A program made the translations under genes and the position numbers. DNA of 64,000 bases from Mobula hypostoma (lineage: Eukaryota): positions 32,056,001 to 32,120,000 of the forward strand of contig NC_086108.1 in NCBI RefSeq assembly GCF_963921235.1. The letters are read 5' to 3'. This document shows, piece after piece, positions 4,982 to 62,449 of the stretch. The stretch's first letter is position 1. The number at the start of each line of letters is the position of its first letter. The notes beneath the pieces were generated by a model. The model worked only from the letters and a program-made list of their open reading frames with translations. It had not been told where the DNA came from and ran no database searches.

Positions 4982-7900
4982 ACTAGACACTAGAATACTA
5001 CAGCAAAGTACAGGCCCTTCGGCCCTCGATGTTGTGCCGACCCATATATTCCTTTAAAAAAAGGAAAAAAAAGTACTAAACCCACACTACCCCGTAACCC
5101 TCTATTTTTCTTTCATCCATGTGCCTGTCCAAGAGGCTCTTAAATACCCTTAATGTTTTAGCCTCTTCTACCATCCCTGGCAAGTCAATCCAAGCACCCA
5201 CAACTCTCTGTGTAAAAAACTCACCCCTGATGTCTCCCCTCAACTTCCCTCCCTTAACTTTGTACATATGCCCTCTGGTGTTTGCTATTTATGCCCTGGG
5301 AAACAGGTACCGGCCATCCACCCTATCTATACCTCTCATAATCTTGTAGACCCCTCTCATCCTTCCACACTCCAAAGAGAAAAAGTCCCAGCTCTGCTAA
5401 CCTTGCCTCATAAGACTTGTTTTCCACTCCAAGCAACATCCTGGTAAATCTCTTCTGCACCCTCTCCATAGCTTCCACATCCTTCCTATGATGAGGTGAC
5501 CAGAACTGAACACAATACTCTAAGTGTGGTCTCACCAGAGATTTGTAGAGTTGCAACATGGCCTCTCTACTCTTGAACTCAATCCCCCTATTAATGAAGC
5601 CTAGCATCCCATAGGCCTTCTTAACTATCCTATCAACCTGTACAGTGACCTTGAGGGATGTATGGATTTGAACCCCAAGGTCCTTCTATTCATCCACACT
5701 CTTAAGTAGCCGACCTTTAACCCTGTACTCAGCCTTCTGGTTTGTCCTTCCAAAATGCATCACCTCACACTTATCCGGATTGAACTCCATCTGCCACTTT
5801 TCTGCCCAACTCTGCATCCTGCCTATATCCTCTTGTAACCGTCAACAACCTACAGCTCCATCCACAACTCCTCCATTCTTCGTGTCATCTGCAAACTTAC
5901 TCACCCATCCTTCCACCTCTTCATCTAGGTCATTTATAAAAATCACAAAGGGCAGGGGTCCCAGTACAGATCCTTGCGGCACTCCACTAGTCACCAACCT
6001 CCAGGCAGAATACTTTCCTTCCACTACTACCCTCTGCTTTCTTCCTGTAAGCCAATTTTTTATCCAAACAGCCAACACTGATCCCATGCCTCCAGACTTT
6101 CTGGATGAGTCTCTCGTGGGGGACCTTGTCAAATACCTTGCTAAAATCCATGTAGACCACATCTACCGCCCTACCCTCATCAATTTCTTTTGTTACCTCT
6201 TCAAAAAACTCAATTAGGCTCGTGAGGCACGACCTTCCCTTCACAAAATCGTGCTGACTATCCTTGAGTAGACTGTACTTCTCCAAATGCTTACAGATCC
6301 TATCCTTAAGAATTCTTTCCAATAGTTTGCAGACCACCGAAGTAAGACTCACTGGTCTATAATTCCCAGGATTCTTCCTATTACCTTTTTTAAACAAGGG
6401 AACTACATTTGCCATTCTCCAATCCTCCGGCACCTCCCCTGCAGCCAAAGAGGATTCAAAGATCATAGCTACTGCTCCAGCTATCTCTTCTCTCACTTCC
6501 CACAGCAACCTGGGGACTTATCAATCTTGATGTTTTAAGAAGATCCAACACTTCTTCTTCCTTAATCTCCACATTGTCCAGCACACAGGCCTGTTCTATT
6601 TCGACCTCACCCTGATCAAGGTCCTTTTCACTTGTGAATACTGAAGCAAAGTATTCATTTAGGACCTCCCCAACCTCCTCCGCCTCCAGGCACATGTTGC
6701 CTTCTTTATCCTTTAGCGGCCCCACCTTCATTCTTGTCATTCTTCTGTTCTTCACCTACGCATAGAACTCCTTGGGGCTCTCCTTAATCCGACATGCCAA
6801 GGCCTTCTCATGCCCCCTTCGAGCTCTCCTAAATCCTTTCTTAAGCTCATTCCTGGCTACCCTATATTTCTCATGAGCCCCTCCTGCTTCCTACTTCTTA
6901 TGTCAAACATATGCTTCCTTCTTCCTCTTGACGAGTTGCCTCACGTGTTTTGTCAGCCACGGTTCCCTTTTCCTACCATTTTTTCCTTGTCTCAGTGGGG
7001 CAAACCTATCCTGAGCCCTGCACAAGTGGTCCCTAAACTTCCTCCACATTACTTCTGTGCTTTGACCTTTGAATATCTGTTTCCAATTTACTCTCGCTAG
7101 TTCCTGCCTCATCCCTTCATAGTTAGCCCTTCCCCAGTTTAGCACTTTCCCATTTTGTCTATTTTTATCCTTTTCCATAGCTATGCTGAAGCTAAGGGAA
7201 TTGTGGTCACTCTCACCAAAATACTCCCCCACCAAGAGGTCTGCCACCTAACCAGGTTCATTACCCAGAACTAGATCTAGTGTGGCCTCTCCCCTCATCC
7301 GCCGGTCCACATACTGTGTCAGGAATTCTTCTTGAACACACCTGACAAATTCAGCCCCATCTATCCCCCTTGCAGTCAGGAGGTGCCAGTCAATATGAGG
7401 GAAGTTGAAATCACCCATAATTACAACCCTGTATTTCCTGCACCATTCTAAAATCTGCCTGCTTATCTGCTCCTCGGTGTCTCGAGGGCTATTTGGGGGC
7501 CTATAAGACTACTCCCAGCACAGTGATTGATCCCTTTCTATTTCTGACTTCCACCCACACCGACTCAGTGGACACTCCCTCTGCAGTGTCCTTCCTTTCT
7601 ATAGCCGTGATACTATCCCTGACCAGTAATGCTGCTCCCCCCACTTTTTCTACCTCCCATCCTATTCCTTTTAAAACGCCTAAACCCCGGTAACTGCATC
7701 AGCCAATCCTGCCCTTCCTCCAGCCAAGTTTCAGTAATGGCCACAACACCATAGTTCCACATACTGATCCATGTTCTAAGTCATCCCCTTTATTCCTAAT
7801 ACTCCTAGCATTGAAATAGACACATTTCAACCCCTCTAACTGGCTACATTTATGTTTTGTCCCCTGCCTGTCCTTCCTCACCAACCCAGAACATATAGCA

Positions 7901-39635: not shown

Positions 39636-39729
39636 TCCTGCTCCGTCGCCCCAGTGTTCAGACTACCTGTTCAGGACAATATTGTTGTACAGTAGTCTGC
39701 ACATTGGTTAGACTGGGCATGGGAAAGCA
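39636..39729 (+). ncRNA. MIR199A2: pre-miR-199 (mir-199a-2 orthologue)
   Basis: 5p CCCAGTGTTCAGACTACCTGTTC at 39650-39672 and 3p ACAGTAGTCTGCACATTGGTTA at 39689-39710 match the known mature sequences. The flank TCCTGCTCCGTCGC and loop AGGACAAT are of the 199a-2 type. Confidence 0.97.
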
Positions 39730-43907: not shown

Positions 43908-44012
43908 GGCTGGTAGGAGTTGTCATGTGTCTGCCTGTCTACACTTGCTGTGCAGAAAATCCTCTCACCTGTACAGCAGGCACAGACAGGCAGTCACATG
44001 ACAACCCAGCCT
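43908..44012 (+). ncRNA. MIR214: pre-miR-214
   Basis: 5p TGCCTGTCTACACTTGCTGTGC at 43932-43953 and 3p ACAGCAGGCACAGACAGGCAGT at 43973-43994; extended stem GTTGTCATGTG / CACATGACAAC. Confidence 0.98.
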
Positions 44013-49900: not shown

Positions 49901-50014
49901 CTCTTCATCCTTGAACCAACAGAGACACTCTGCAGTCAACACAAACCAGTATTCCTTGGAACCTCCTTTTATGATGCTGATATTGCTGATGGTGAGCCAA
50001 CCTTTTCTGACCAC
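49901..50014 (-). CDS. DNM3: Dynamin-3 exon encoding the start of the PH domain (114 nt, phase 0/0)
   Basis: ttccttgtag|GTG...GAG|gtaaga; translates to [38 protein letters not shown], a dynamin PH domain. The paralogue is assigned from 'TISN' and from the antisense miR-199 + miR-214 pair in the next intron. Confidence 0.95.
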
Positions 50015-52679
50015 CTACAAGGAAATATGGACAAACATAGATAAAACTGTGTTTAAGACAAGTTACTCATCTTCTTGAAAAAGTGATTATTAGAAAGATA
50101 GAAAACCTACAGCACAACACAGACAAATAAGACAGATTATTAATGGTTCTTTTTTCCTTCAAGACTAACAACAGTACCTTGCTTTGCTTTTCTTTGCATG
50201 ATCACCATGGGATTGCAGAATACTACTGATATCAACTCATCTTTAGAATTAGAATAAAATCTCCAAAGTATTAGGGTCACAAGTAAAGGGACTACAACTT
50301 CCAAAACAACCGTAGGTTTACCGCACCAATTATGATTTTTATTTAACAGTGCTGTAAGCTGTATATATTTATGTCATTGTGAGCATTATTGTGACAATCA
50401 TAAGTTCTGTACACTCTAGCATGCAACAAGAGCCTAGAATAATTTATTGTTCACCCCAGAGCAAGTTACCAGTAAGATCTTAGTTTCCTTGAACAGTAAT
50501 GAAAGCGATGCTGTAAGTATAAAGACAACATTGACATTACTAATGTATACCATAGTAACAGTAAATGATATATCATAATAAACCATATGATTCCTGTAAT
50601 ATTCAGCACCATTGGAGAAAATAAGTTACCATACTTCACGAAATAAAAATCTAGTCATTTTCTGGATTAGCAATTTGCTTTTCCTCATTAAAAGCAACTA
50701 AATATAATGTGCATTAAACTGAATTTGCCAGATGATTCAAATACTTCCCTCTTATCAACTTTTATTTCATGAATCTTGTTCCCTCTAGCTTGCAGTGTAA
50801 GTGCTTTGAAGAATAAAGGAGGAAGAATTAATTCCATGATCTTAACTTCCAGACAGATTATTCCATTTGGCATTCAGGGCTAGAGAGCTGCAGCATCATC
50901 CTTCCCAGTTCCACATTTTGATGCTGGGATCACATGATGTCCAGTTATATGTCATTCACTGGTTTCTTCTATTATTTAGCTATCTAATTGTATTAGATGC
51001 TCAAGAAATTCTATTAGATTTCACTTCCTAATGGTTAATTGTTTCCAGGGAAACAACTGACCATTAGGAAGTGAAATCTCATGCTCTGGGAGCTGCATCC
51101 CTAATCAATTTCACTGACCAAGGATTATATGACATTTCAATATTGTTTTTTGTGAGAGGTTCCTCTTCAGAAGTTAGCTGCCGCATTTCCTGTTTTACAA
51201 CAGTACCACTAATTACTATCACAATTGGCAATATATCTTCTATTTTACATTTCTTCTGTTTTTGAGCAGAGTCAACATTGAAGTCAGGAATCAGTATTTG
51301 GGATAGCCATTGTCAATCAGGTTGGATTAGCAGATGAAAGTGGAAAACCACATTGCTTGAACCCTCAGATGTCCATCTTTGAGAATTCAACTACTGTCAG
51401 TCAACCATCAATCTACAGGCCATGACACTCATGGACTTGGTCTGTAATTTTGTGACAGTATGTTTTTCTGCTATTGTAACAATGTGTGTTGTAGGTGCTC
51501 TGTGCTGTTTGTGACCACTGGTACTGTGTTTTCCACCTTGGCCCTGGAAGAACACCATTTTGTTTGGCTGTATTCATGTACGGTTGAACAATAACTAAAC
51601 TTGAACTTGTTAATAATGTCAAGACTGCATATGGATCTGTTGTTGTCTCTAGTTTTTCATCAATTCCACTACAGATTAACAAACTTTGGAACAAGGTCCA
51701 CCGCAGACCATCTTCATTTTAACATCTGTGTTGGTTACTCTTAATTAGTGCAAATTGGCCATGAAATTAGACAGTTGATTATTTGCTTTCTTAATAATCA
51801 TTGCATTTAGTAGAAATCACAGAATTAATAGGGGAGGCAGGGGGAGGGAAGGAAATCGGAACCAGGCATGTGCTGGATGTGTGAAATAGATCCAAGCTAA
51901 TTATGCATTGCCGTCCCCGCACATATTTTCCACATCTTCTACTTTCTGGCAGATACTTAAGAAAAAAACACCTCTCTACATCAGGGATTTCCAGCCTGTG
52001 GCCTACAGACCCCTTGGTTAATGGTGGGGGTCCATGACATAAAAAAGGTTGAGAACCCTGCCATGTAATGACTAGTCTACATCATTTAACCCAAGATGTG
52101 GTTTCTCGATCTGGTAACTGTTTCAGAATTAGATGCAACAGCAACAACTTTTAGGAACAGACTAAGTTACTAACATGGAAACTGCTATAAGCCTGAAAGG
52201 CTGACAAGATGATACTGTTACAAAATATAATTTATCATAGTGAGAGCAGCATTCAATGGAAGAACCTGCATTTTGCAATCATAATCATTAGGGTCTGAAC
52301 ATTCAGGACCAGATTACGCTGACTTCTGCATGGATTTGATCAGAACCCAGGAGTTCCATAGTTTATAGCAGATTAAATTGCAGGCATCCACCAAATGCAC
52401 CGGTCTAAAAGTTACCAACAGATCCAAAGAAGTTGAACCTGTCAGTTCAGTCCACTGCTAGATTCCCCCAAGAATCCAGTGGTGAAGCCCAATTTTGCTG
52501 AAATTCCCTGTACCTCACTGAGGAGCCAAGGTCCCATCTACTCAGTGAAAAATGTAAGGCGAAAGTTAAGGAGGTAAAGAAGTTAAACATATTTTGCTTT
52601 AGATTAATGTTTTTAATTTGTTTGTTTTTATAATTTAGTTAACTTTATTTTTTAATTATTTCACTTATCACTTCAAGTT

Positions 52680-53900
52680 TACACGTACACAGCTGGAGGA
52701 ACTCAGCAGTACAGGCAGCTTCTACAGAAATGAATAAACTGTCAACGTTTTGGGCTGAGAGCTTTCTTGAGGACTCAAGAGGAAGAGGGAAGGCGACAGG
52801 GGAAAAATGGTGGAAGGAGGAGGAAAGAGAATAGCAAGAAGGTGATAAATGAAGCTAAGTGGGTGGGAAAGGTAAAGGGCTGGAGAGGAAGGAATCTGAT
52901 TTGAGAGGAGAGTGGACCAAAGAAAAGAGGGAAGGAGGGGACCCGGCAGGAGGTGATAGGTGAGAAGAGATACGGAGACAGAGTGGGGAATAGAAGAAAA
53001 GGGGAGGGGGAAGAGAATTTTTTTTTACTGGAAGGAGAAATCGGTATTCATGCCATCAGGCTGGAAGCTACCCAGATGGAATATAACGTATTGCTCCTTC
53101 ACCCTGAGGGTGGCCTCAGTGTAGCACAAGAGGAGACCATAGACGACATATCAGAACGGGAATGGGAACTAGAATTAAAGTGTTTGGCCACCAGGAAGTT
53201 TTACTTTTGGCGGATGGAGCAGAGGTGCTCAACGAAGTGGTCTCCAAATTTATGATGGGTCTCACCAATGCAGAGGAGCTGCACTGGGAGCACTGGACAC
53301 TATCGATGACCCCAGCATATTCACAGTGTGGTGGTGCCTAACCTGTAAGGACAGTCTGGGGCCCTGAATGGAGGCGAGGGAGGAAGTGAATGGGCAGATT
53401 ACCACCTGCAGGGTTGAGGTAAAGAAATGTTTGGTGGTAGGATCCCCTTGAAGTCAGTGGAGGTTGTGGAGAATAATGTGTTGGATGTGGAAGCTCATGG
53501 GGTGGTAGCTAAGGACAGGAGGAACTCTATCACTATTAAGGTGGCCGGAAGATGGGGCAAGTGCGGATGTTTGGAAAATGGAGGAGATGTGGGTGAGAGC
53601 AGAATCTATGGTGGAGAAAGGGAAACCCCATTCTTTGAAGGAAGAAGAGATCTCTAATGTTCTGGAAAGGAAAACCACATCCTGGGAACAGATGTGGTGG
53701 AGACAAAGGAACTGTAAAAATAGCATTTTTATAGGAGACAGGATCGGAAGAGGTATAGTCAAAATAACTGTGGAAATTGGTACATTTATAAAAGATGTCA
53801 GTCAACAGTTTGTCTCCAGAGATGGAGACAGAGATCGAAAAAGAGGAGGGACATGTCAGAAATTTAAGGGCAAGGTGGAAATTGGAGGGAAAGTCGAAGG
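52680..53900 (-). mobile_element. Penelope-like retroelement fragment (RT C-terminus, GIY-YIG region, pLTR)
   Basis: TDIFYKCTNFHSYFDYTSSDP, QFLCLHHICSQD...GFPFSTID, RVPPVLSYHP and RHLASSLMA-region remnants; pLTR motif at the left end. Confidence 0.8.
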
Positions 53901-54109: not shown

Positions 54110-55290
54110 TGGAAGGAAGAAAGGAAGGCACTCCATCTAGATGATGTAACTGATAGCTTTGTGGCCAAGTTTACAGACAGTACAAAAGATCGTTGGTGCA
54201 GGTAGTGCTGAGCAAATAGGAAGTCTCCAGAAGGAGAATGGGCAAGAAAGTGGTATATAGAATGCAGCATAGAGAATCATACAGCTATGCACCTTGATAG
54301 AAGGAATAAAGGTGTAGATTATTTTCTAAATGGAGAGCGAATTCAGAAATTCTAGAGGTGCAAGAGGACATGTATGTCCAAGTGCATGATTCCCTAAGAG
54401 TTAACTTGCAGGTTGTATCAGTAGCAAGGAAGGCAAATGAAATGTTAGCATTCATTTCAAGAGGACTAGAATGTAAAAGCAAGACTGTAATGCTGAGATT
54501 TTATAAGGCATTGGTCAGACAACATTTGGAGTTTTGAGCAACACACATATGATACTGGAGGAACTCAGCAAGTCAGGCAGCATCTATGAAGGGGATAAAG
54601 AGTCGACAATTTGGCCGAGACCCTTCATCAGAATTGGAAAGGAATGGGGCAAAAGCCTGACTTGCTGAGTTCCTACAGCATTTTATAAGCAACGTGAGTG
54701 TTGCTCAAGCTTGTAATGATGAGGCTTTACAAGGTAATGGCCAGACCTCATCGGGATTATTGTGAGCAGCTTTGGGCACCATATCTAAGGATGGGTATGT
54801 TGGTGTTGGAGAAGGTCCAAAGAAATTTACGAAAAGATTCCAGAGATGAAAAGGTTAACACCTGAGAAGCTTTTAATGGCTCTGGGCTAGTACTCACTGG
54901 TGGTTAGAGGATGCGGGTGGGTGTGACCTCATTGAAACCTACCAAATATTGAAAGGCCTGGATAGAGTGAATGTGGAGAGGATGTTTTCAGTAGTGGGAC
55001 AGTTTAGGACCAGAGGGTACGGCCTCAGAATAAAAGGACATACTTTTAGAACAGAGATTAGGAGGGATGTTTTTAGCTAGAGGGTGCTGAATCGGTGGAA
55101 TTTATTGTCACAGATAGCTATGGAGGCCAAGCCATTCGGCATATCTAAAGTGGAAGTTGATAGGTCCTTAATTAGTAAGTGTGTCAAAGGTTACAGGGAG
55201 AAGGTAGGAGAATGAGTTTGAGGAAATAATAAATCTGCCATGATCAAATAGTGGAGCAGACTCAATGGACCAAATAGTTTAATTCTTCCA
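54110..55290 (+). mobile_element. Decayed CR1-like fragment with an inverted Penelope pLTR insertion (about 54538-54690)
   Basis: ANEMLAFISRGLE and DLIETYQILKGLDRV remnants; internal inverted repeat gaactcagcaagtcaggc / gcctgacttgctgagttcc. Confidence 0.75.
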
Positions 55291-58374: not shown

Positions 58375-59910
58375 CTTGATGGCAGGAGCAGAGGGTGGTA
58401 GTGAAGAGTTGTTATTCTAAATTGGAGGCTTACGATCTGTTGTGTGCTGCAGGGGTTGGTGCTAGGTCCCCTATTGTTGGTCAACTATATTAACAATTTG
58501 GATTAGAATGTAGGTGACATGATTAATAAGTGTGTAGATGATTCCAAAATTAGTGGTGTGGTGGGCAGTAAGGAAGGTCTCTAAATTTCAAGATTGTTTC
58601 ATGTAATTCCTGGTACACATATAAAGAAGCAAGTAGTTGTTACTCCAGATCTAATGCAGCGCAAGAAAACAGAATAAGCTAAAGAATACAATAAAAAAAT
58701 ACAACAAATGTAAATGCATAAGATAGCTTATATACATAGATTGATTGTATGTCCATTAAGTGATACTAGGCACAGGAGTGTTTGCACACAAGGTGCCTCT
58801 GACAGGAAATGATAAAGTATAGTGTTGGGGATGTGGAGAGGTGCATTAGTGGATAGAAGTGTTGATCAGCCTTACAGTCAGAGAAAGTAAATGTTTCTGC
58901 ATCTGATGGTCCTGGTGTGGATGCTACATAGCCTTCTCCCTAATGAGAGGGGAACAAAGAGCCCATGAGTAGGGTGGGTGGGATCCTTCATGATTTTACT
59001 GGCACCTTCTGTATGTATGCCCTTAATGGCAGGTCGGCTGGTGCAGGTGAAGCGTTGGGCAGTTTAGACTACCCCTTGTAAAGTTACAACAGAATCTAGA
59101 TCAATTGAGAAAGTGGACAAAGGAATATCAGATGGAAATTTAACTTGGACAAATGTGAAGTGATGCATTATGGGAAGTTAAACCAAGGCAAGCCTAAACA
59201 GTAAATGACAGGGCCCTGGGAAGTGTTGGACAACAAAGAGACCTAGGAGAATGGCCACGTAAGTTCAATGAAAGTGGTTGGTGGAAGGTGAAGGCAGCAT
59301 AGGGTATGCCTGTCTTCATTGGACAGGACATTGATTACAATAGCTAGAACACCTTGTTGCAGCTATACAAGACATTGGGAGACTGTATTTGGAATAGTGT
59401 GTGCTGTTCTGAACACCATACTATCAGAAGGATATGATTAAGCGAGTGAATGCAGGTAAGTTTCACACTGATATTGCTGTGACTTGAAGCTTTGATTTAT
59501 AAGGAGACTAGACAGGCTTGGACTGTTTTCCCCAGAATGAAGGAGGTTGAGAGGTGACGTTATAGAGGTTTTTAAAATAATGAGGAGGATGGTTCACAGT
59601 GTTTTTCACAAGGTAGCAAAATCTAAAACCGGCGGGGGGGGGGGGGGTAGATTTAAATTTAAAGTTTAAAGTGTCCCTAAGGAGAAGATTTTCCACACAG
59701 AGGGAGGTGGGTACAGAAAATGAGCTGCTAGAGAAAGTGCTAGAGGTGGGTACAATTGCAGCACTTTAAAGATATTTAGACAGGCTCACGGAAAGGAAAA
59801 GTTGAAAGGGATATGATCCAAATGTAGTAAAAGGAATGAGTTCATAAAGGCATCTTGGTCAGCATGGACAAGTATGGCTGAAGAGCTTGTTTCTGTACTA
59901 TATGATTCAC
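58375..59910 (+). mobile_element. Old CR1-like fragment with a nested minus-strand LINE tail (about 58585-59080)
   Basis: Degenerate QGLVLGPLL, KCVDDSK and KCEVMHYG motifs on either side of the insert. Confidence 0.65.
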
Positions 59911-60219
59911 ATTAAACTGATGAGGAAAATTTGGATTATGAAATTCTCAATTTTAATGTGATATTATCAATATAATAATTCCACCAGTTCCATATTCTTC
60001 AATTCTGGAGTGCACTAGTTCATACATGAATACTAATATAGTTAGTTGTACAATAAATAGACAAAATCTATCTTTTTTTCTGTGCATTAAAGTTGGAAAA
60101 TATGTACATTAAGTGTGTGGAAATGTTAATACCAAACCGAAGATCATGTTATTTAGTAATAGGCAAACTGACATAAAAGTAATGGTGCTCAGTAATAAAC
60201 CAATAGCATCTTACAAAAC

Positions 60220-60261
60220 CTTAGCACGTAAAATTTGTCTCAACAGTGGAAGATGAGAGTA
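60220..60261 (-). CDS. DNM3: Probable alternatively spliced DNM3 microexon (YSHLPLLRQI[LRAK]); donor position uncertain
   Basis: Strong acceptor ttttgttttgctatttcag|TAC. In-frame YSHLPLLRQI resembles the mammalian DNM3 10-aa insert (GTNLPPSRQI, recalled) found at the same junction. The first in-frame GT is AAG|GTTTTG at 60219. Confidence 0.65.
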
Positions 60262-61059
60262 CTGAAATAGCAAAACAAAAATACAACAGAGAAAATACAC
60301 TGATAAAACTGTGGATTTTACAGATATACATGTTAAAAGCTTGTTTAAAATGTACTTAGGTGCCTGCTGTTTAGTTTTGTAATAAACGGATGCCAATATG
60401 CCCCATGCAGAATCGTAAGCCAATCTTCAACTGTTTGAGCAATCTAGCAGCTTTACAAAAATCTATCAGTGTTTCTAAGCCAGATTAAATTACTAAACCT
60501 TAATTAATTCTGAAATATTTTACAACCAAAATGAAATAATGTAATAGTTTTTTTACAAATATCAAGTTACCTATTGAAGTATAGACAACCATTAAAATTA
60601 CATCAAAACCTCAGTGAAAAAGGCATCTTGCACTATGAGGCTTTCTCTTTAACTTGTAATAAAAGTATGCACATGCCTGAACTAGTAAACTGTACTACTT
60701 GAAAGCACTGAATAATTATTCCCAAATAATTCATATGCCAAGCAGTAACAAAAAAAATTGTAAACAGAAGTGCAATTAGTTGAGATGGAAGATTATGAGG
60801 CAGAAAAAAGCAACTCAAAAATAAATTTAAAGTAAGAGTCATAGAACAAAGATGGCAACAAAGCAGGAAGTAAAGACAATTCTTGAGCAATGATTGTCCA
60901 ATTGCAGCAAAATAAAACTTGAACAATTCTTCAAACACAATTTGAATGTGCACTACAACATGTTCGTAATCATGCTTAATTAATCATATCGCAAGGAACA
61001 GAAAAATTAAAACTGCTTAAGTGTAATACATGCATTTTACAAAAAAATAGAACTCTTAC

Positions 61060-61111
61060 CTGATTCCCAGCAGTGTGCTTCTTATTAAGCTGACCACACC
61101 TTTGTTGGGCA
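61060..61111 (-). CDS. DNM3: Dynamin-3 exon at the stalk-to-PH linker (52 nt, phase 2/0)
   Basis: ttttctatag|T GCC CAA CAA...AAT CAG|gtaaga; translates to (N)AQQRCGQLNKKHTAGNQ, homologous to dynamin NAQQRS.Q..KK...GNQ. Confidence 0.92.
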
Positions 61112-62449
61112 CTATAGAAAACGTATAACAATTTTCTAAATATAATTACTTAAGAAGATTGTTTAATTTTTTTACATTCCATTGGAAAAGAAGCATCAAG
61201 TATAAGATATTGTTTGTTTAGTTCAGGAAGTCATGGTAGAGAAAACAAAAAGGTAACATGGGGATGGATGTGTTTACAAAAAATATTAAATCAGAGAAAT
61301 TGTGTGAGCTACACAGTACTTGGCCATGACTTACTAATAATTAAAATAGCTAGAAGCAAAACATCTTGATAATTATGAACTGATAACTTACTGAAAACGC
61401 TAGCATTAAGCATAAGATACACAGGTCCTTGCTTAGTTACATGTAAAAAAATGTAACCTCACACATTACATAATGAAAGACTTTTCACACAGTACTATTA
61501 AAATACAAAACAGATTACAGATTTTAAATGTCCTTTTCAAGACCCAATGTTCTAAAAAATCCTTCCCAAAACTGTGCAGCTGTAAAAAGGCAAAACCAGG
61601 AATCCAGCAACACTGCGGTGACTACTAGACTTCTTAGTGCATGACAGAATTTTGATTCCTGGTTTTTGGTGGGATTTTCATTCACACTAGAAACTTCTTT
61701 CAGGATAATATGATGCCCAAAATTCATTTCTAGTATGATTTTCAACTGCACCGGGGTGGGGAAACGTTTATTTAACTTCCTAAATATTGGAAACAGTGTT
61801 ATTGAAAAGGGCCAATACTCACAGTGACCATTTGAATTCACTGAAATTAGTGCTTTCAACTCACTGAAGTTTGCAACATAAGATATAATATTTCATGTAA
61901 TAGTTCAGACTGGCTGCCCCTGGAGGTCAAGGTCATGGTCACTCTCAGCTTCCTTCCCTCAGGATCAATCCTGTATGATGTGCTGTTCACTGCTCTATTA
62001 GAAACATTATCCAAGCTTCATATTTAAGAGTTTTTCTTCAGCTTATGGAAATAAGCTGAGAAAGCACAGGAACGTTTTAACATCCACGAAGTACAGAAAT
62101 TCAAACTCTGCACTCATTTTGCATTGCTCCGTAGAGACCTTGCTGGCAAAATCCTGGCAGTTGCCCTGTATATCTGTAAACAGCTTTATACAAATAACAT
62201 GGCTCCTGTAGGTACTTGTCCACCAAATTGTCCACATTGATCTGCCCTTCAGGAAAATTCTCTGTCCCTTCTCTCATTGTTGTAGTGTCCTACATTGAAG
62301 CGGCAACATGCCCAAGTAGCAGAGTGCTACTTTTAAGGTGACATTTGCCAAAATTGCAGCTGCCAGACTAAGTGAAAGCAGCTGTAAGATATAACAGATT
62401 TATAGGATAGTGCAGTTATAATTGAATTGTGTACAATTATGTGGGGAAG

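Follow-up and report, generated by a model that had tools for sequence, protein, structure and literature searches.

The 64-kb stretch of DNA analyzed here (referred to below as the window) contains the orthologue of a 30-nt microexon of DNM3, which encodes an insert in the linker of dynamin-3, and in this ray and a close relative the GT donor of that exon has become TT. The evidence tips toward a reading that we hold with modest confidence, namely, that the microexon is likely skipped and that only insert-free dynamin-3 is made.

The microexon and its host gene

The window contains only two coding exons of DNM3, each on the minus strand, and they match devil ray and stingray models best; the PH exon is identical to the Mobula and Hemitrygon dnm3a models at 38 of 38 residues. 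The features used in the analysis are as follows.

61060..61111, minus strand: DNM3 coding exon, end of the stalk plus linker, upstream of the microexon (tblastn against ray DNM3 models; covered by a spliced RNA contig)
60262..60310, minus strand: polypyrimidine tract, TGC starting at 60272, and AG acceptor of the microexon (sequence; motif scan)
60232..60261, minus strand: orthologue of the 30-nt DNM3 linker microexon, YSHLPLLRQI (position, peptide, and BLOSUM62 score)
60230..60231, minus strand: dead ancestral donor, TT for GT (sequence; relative B also lacks the G)
60218..60231, minus strand: 12-nt extension (LRAK) and in-frame AAG/GT donor at 42 nt (sequence; use of the homologous donor suggested by Narcine models)
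60209..60219, minus strand: frameshifting TTT/GTAAGA donor at 47 nt and read-through stop at 60213-60211 (sequence; use of the homologous donor suggested by a Hemiscyllium model)
49901..50014, minus strand: first PH-domain exon of DNM3, 114 nt (ray models; PDB dynamin PH matches)
43911..44011, plus strand: miR-214 precursor, antisense within the DNM3 intron that follows the first PH exon (Rfam RF00660, 121 bits)
39640..39719, plus strand: miR-199 precursor, antisense, in the same DNM3 intron as miR-214 (Rfam RF00144, 102.5 bits)

The host gene is identified as DNM3 by the identity of the PH exon, by the two antisense microRNAs, and by the grouping of these models with DNM3 in a protein tree. 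We take miR-199 and miR-214 lying antisense in an intron to be the DNM3 arrangement, with miR-214 marking the paralogue; the spacing between the two precursors is about 4.2 kb. Several ray DNM3 models are labelled dynamin-2-like. Elsewhere in the window, an inverted repeat at 51013-51082 (34-nt arms, 91% complementary, with a 2-nt loop) is located some 1 kb upstream of the acceptor of the PH exon, and weak tblastn rows mark broken frames at 2514-2744 and 6110-6322, whose residues resemble a LINE reverse transcriptase motif.

The microexon is located in phase 0 between the linker exon and the first PH exon. On the minus strand, the AG acceptor at 60263-60262 is followed directly by 30 nt encoding YSHLPLLRQI and then by TTACGT, just as an earlier note on this DNA had described, with correct coordinates; the 30-nt exon is thus not closed by a GT, and the window is free of N. 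The peptide is identical to the shark insert DSHLPLLRQI at nine of ten residues. When DSHLPLLRQI was scored ungapped with BLOSUM62, in frame after each AG, the microexon site reached 42, compared with 12 for the runner-up among 4251 minus-strand AG sites, 18 for the best plus-strand site, and 28 for the highest maximum across 30 base-shuffled windows, arguing that the match is not due to chance. On these sequence grounds, we regard 60261-60232 as the orthologue of the shark 30-nt DNM3 exon, so that the gene assignment and the orthology put forward in the earlier note both hold; the 10-aa mammalian DNM3 insert that it had cited is present in database models of a mouse species and the Tasmanian devil. 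The first base of the exon is T here, giving Tyr; every insert model examined opens instead with a G-initial codon for Asp or Gly.

The donor change in reads and transcripts

Over positions 60140-61130, we compared reads from four of 24 runs, including those of three relatives, designated B (98.7% alike), J (94.6% alike), and D. For B, one contig spans the whole 991-nt stretch with 13 other letters, all of which were counted by kind. The only A>C change in B is at 60724, and B consequently has no minus-strand G at either 60231 or 60261. For J, one contig shows 53 other letters in 989, with 40 of 52 places listed; a single A>C is among the unlisted places, so at most one of 60231 and 60261 can be ancestral in J. 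Position 60261 in J is overlapped by a stray record. J-only rows at 60204 and 60303 flank the donor, and a change at 60231 would carry the same support as these; J, too, very likely has T at 60231. The change that disables the splice site is common to the window and B and, judging from the flanking rows, to J. The exon is free of indels in both B and J, all of whose gap letters are accounted for outside it.

These comparisons bear on whether faulty assembly or a private variant could account for the T at 60231. In four runs of the possible source sample, the fraction of 201 sampled words of 59500-61500 that were present was 1.00, and B, a different organism, also lacks the G. The source reads were checked by sampled words; an assembly error, which the earlier note had left open, is in effect refuted, and this explanation as a whole is barely credible.

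In relative D, a hole over 60187-60329 makes the contig uninformative on the exon. The D contig departs from the window at 60186, 28 nt beyond the 47-nt donor, and its letters past that point resemble, by eye, an intronic repeat family (52693-52724 and 54555-54586). A repeat insertion beside the exon in D is possible; a 14-nt motif taken from the departing letters had no matches in the window.

Direct evidence on splicing comes from one contig of 220 nt at a depth of 3.2, which aligns to 61058-61111 and which we take, by guess, to be RNA; it carries the same species label as the possible source. On one side, its 30 loose letters equal window positions 49983-50012; on the other side, the loose letters read, by eye, as the preceding dynamin exon. 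The contig is a spliced transcript that skips the microexon and joins 61060 to the PH exon. The same RNA sample has no cover on 60205-60285, so that the joining contig alone is informative. Because this is a single low-depth contig and contigs drop rare forms, it establishes that skipping occurs in some tissue and leaves room for inclusion.

The insert and the fallback donors in other species

Counts of the insert were made on annotation models, two shark clusters being represented by the 15 of 21 and 15 of 22 models that were listed. At least one model contains the insert in each of 14 shark, chimaera, sawfish, and electric-ray species (11 of 11 sharks, Callorhinchus, Pristis, and Narcine). 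The myliobatiform models lack it in 12 of 12 cases (four species; all members of three clusters examined), and region searches based on proteins that have the insert turned up no other ray protein carrying it. It is likewise absent from all seven skate models (Amblyraja, Leucoraja, and Rhinoraja), where a second, independent loss is possible; alternatively, the skate result could reflect annotation that misses the insert in some batoids. Birds, turtles, a marsupial, and a mouse have the form G(T/A)NLPPSRQI, and Alosa has a form of 10 to 11 aa. Bird DNM3 models also contain other short inserts, PQ and FLFKPQ, at this junction, which are probably alternative PH-exon acceptors.

Past the 30-nt site, minus-strand GT donors would give exons of 34 nt (60228, out of frame), 42 nt (60220, in frame, adding LRAK), and 47 nt (60215, frameshifting). 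All three were found in the sequence with the frames given in the earlier note, which lacked an additional in-frame GC at 36 nt (60226). The numbers of consensus letters are low: 4/11 for the 42-nt donor, 5/11 for the 47-nt donor, and 4/11 each for the TT site and the 36-nt GC, versus 9/11 and 7/11 for the flanking exons. By pairing with U1, about 12% and 15% of 545 intronic GTs do equally well as the 42-nt and 47-nt donors, respectively, although this score is rough, since the pairing energies are not register-constrained. On its intronic side, the 47-nt donor has six letters identical to those of the constitutive donors, while its exonic side, TTT, is poor. Its product would have a premature stop inside the PH exon, about 68 nt before the end of that 114-nt exon; only with this donor does a stop fall more than 50 to 55 nt before a later junction, as the rule for poison exons has it.

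Models from other species suggest that the 42- and 47-nt donors are not peculiar to the window. In Narcine bancroftii, four of seven models show the 10 aa extended by VRAK and continuing directly into the PH exon, a structure that corresponds to the 42-nt form, and one of seven has the 10-aa form. The homologous 42-nt donor is therefore likely usable in a batoid, as far as protein models can tell, and the idea that a 14-aa form is an invention of the present lineage falls. Hemiscyllium isoform X7 ends in RQIVRAKSLW; the Trp is the next residue in the shifted PH-exon frame, so this protein (known to us as a protein only) fits the 47-nt frameshift. In Heptranchias perlo, all three models contain RQIVRAKIF and further residues, the 33-aa insert being composed of the 10 aa, VRAKIF, and 17 more. 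The extra residues match nothing convincingly in the window (best E value, 1.1), and the insert may represent either a patch in the annotation or use of the 47-nt donor followed by an exon that restores the frame. In duck, one model continues past the exon through VRAK into the intron and ends there.

At the level of sequence, conservation of the bases after the donor extends across jawed vertebrates, in coding and noncoding contexts alike, and the fallback donors at 42 and 47 nt look old. Since these bases are conserved to duck as intron, their survival here proves nothing, and LRAK is no sign of a new extension. In relatives B and J, a plus-strand G>A (minus-strand C>T) at 60228 turns the Arg of the extension into Cys; this Arg of the VRAK stretch is otherwise conserved from duck to Narcine. 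The replacement in two relatives weakens the earlier proposal that the lineage has gained a more basic insert.

It is conceivable that the exon is under constraint or that it is drifting. At a distance of 5.4% between the window and J, drift is expected to change 0.6 to 1.2 residues of the exon, and one change was observed, which fits neutral drift over ten residues. Among the 40 of 52 places listed, differences to J number 2 in 60140-60302 (163 nt) versus 28 in 60303-60789 (487 nt), and this scarcity near the exon may point to constraint. The window preserves the acceptor, the TGC, and the two fallback GTs. In a protein tree of 22 DNM3 proteins and 747 columns, with one model per species (Rhinoraja and one each of two Scyliorhinus and two Chiloscyllium species being omitted), branches from the elasmobranch ancestor measure 0.14 to 0.22 in batoids versus 0.03 to 0.09 in sharks, values that describe DNM3 only. 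Private changes number 29 in Mobula versus 12 in Pristis. The Narcine branch is about as long (41 versus 36 private changes), yet the exon is kept there. The changed +1 G, the changed Arg codon, and the faster batoid DNM3 fit relaxed constraint.

In our favored explanation, loss of the exon by skipping, U1 would be unable to define the 30-nt exon without the +1 G of the donor, and at most traces of 14-aa or frameshifted products would arise from the older, weak donors located 12 and 17 nt beyond. Skipping would then be the default, giving insert-free dynamin-3, and the exon would drift as a relic whose intact appearance reflects the small divergence among these rays. The earlier note had named three outcomes, a 14-aa insert, a poison exon, and loss; these were the right candidates, and the evidence leans to the last. 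Several observations weigh against loss. Homology-guided annotation would miss a 30-nt exon without a GT even if a 42-nt form existed, and a brain-only 42-nt exon could escape annotation, depending on the tissues behind the models. Evidence of skipping comes from a single record of depth 3.2, and the skates likewise lack the insert in all their models. The splicing signals and fallback GTs survive, B and J have no exon indels, differences to J are sparse nearby, and Narcine DNM3, about as fast-evolving, keeps its exon.

A bolder reading, possible but short of what we would favor, is that, in devil rays and stingrays, the major donor of an exon conserved from chimaera to mammals was deleted and an ancient minor donor took over, so that neurons would make the 14-aa insert only or would have acquired a frameshifting off switch. 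Taken singly, its first version, in which the 42-nt AAG/GT donor (60220) now works and neurons make a 14-aa linker insert instead of a 10-aa one, is doubtful. It draws on the four Narcine models with the extension, on the open frame, with the acceptor still in place and a TGC retained nine bases before the AG, and on the exon's freedom from indels in B and J with few listed differences nearby; against it, none of the 12 myliobatiform models has such an insert, the sole RNA contig skips the exon, and Asp-to-Tyr at the first codon and Arg-to-Cys in B and J strike otherwise conserved positions. Moreover, the 42-nt donor is weak, and the VRAK bases, conserved in the duck run-on, need not be kept for coding. 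Use of the 47-nt TTT/GTAAGA donor, with a frameshift and a stop in the PH exon (predicted to trigger NMD), or a run-on to the stop at 60213-60211, would turn an isoform switch into an off switch. This second version is unlikely: the premature stop, the Hemiscyllium and Heptranchias models, the duck run-on at the site, and the constitutive-type intronic letters of the donor are consistent with it, but nothing of the kind was seen in the myliobatiform models or the RNA contig, the shark cases come from protein models rather than DNA, and the exonic TTT is poor. Very improbable is a noncanonical event, in which the TT donor still splices the 30-nt exon or the in-frame GC splices a 36-nt exon. The 30-nt frame is intact and a GC does stand at 36 nt; however, each site has only 4 of 11 consensus letters, and neither a 10-aa nor a 12-aa insert occurs in the 12 myliobatiform models. 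TT donors are very rare, and a GC donor generally requires a consensus close to perfect.

Meaning and known linker inserts

On the favored reading, a deeply conserved cassette microexon has been lost via a single donor change in a ray lineage, which is a modest, lineage-specific result of a known type of event. Its scale is one exon in one gene, and it offers a clean case to students of microexon evolution or dynamin isoforms; the analysis also suggests that the conserved post-donor bases hold two more usable donors in cartilaginous fishes. Should brain RNA reveal only the 14-aa form or only the poison form, these rays would provide a useful natural test of the role of linker inserts, and if the donor-promotion reading were true, they would amount to a natural experiment in which one base changes the size and role of a microexon. 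Studies of rat dynamin-3 have reportedly dealt with splice-form function in spines and filopodia. We found no publications on this exon in rays or sharks in open-licence PMC and bioRxiv.

The closest known system is the DNM3 10-aa cassette exon of the stalk-PH linker itself (DSHLPLLRQI in sharks, sawfish, and electric ray; GTNLPPSRQI in birds and mammals), with which the present exon shares the gene, the junction, phase 0, nine of ten residues, and the post-donor bases. It differs in its TT donor, in its first base, T, and in that no inclusion was seen in models of the lineage. The 14-aa isoform of Narcine bancroftii (e.g., XP_069793831.1, a database model) ends where the 42-nt donor of the window lies; unlike the window, Narcine also has a 10-aa form (one of seven models), Asp at position 1, and Val-Arg in the extension. 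Neural microexons regulated by SRRM3/4 resemble the exon in the TGC (60272) between the pyrimidine tract and the AG. A preprint gives UGC in 79% and 74% of two microexon classes and covers orthologous microexons of 23 other species (bioRxiv 10.1101/2024.09.17.613571), and another source lists an alternative mouse Dnm3 microexon, there unspecified as to which one (PMC7821500). In contrast to the SRRM3/4 class, the usable GT donors here would give exons of 34, 42, or 47 nt, longer than about 30 nt, and they are weak (4 to 5 of 11 letters) where that class has a strong 5' splice site. The 4-aa linker microexons of DNM1 and DNM2 (DEIL and GEIL; DNM2 exon 13b) occupy the same junction in paralogue models, and a published account of DNM2 likewise places exon 13b at this junction (PMC9652393); these are different genes and sequences, and DNM2 exon 12b is muscle-specific and lies one exon upstream. 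According to that same account, exon 12b is a 10-aa insert between the stalk and the PH domain, near an auto-inhibitory interface, and gives larger oligomers (PMC9652393), which indicates that linker inserts can matter.
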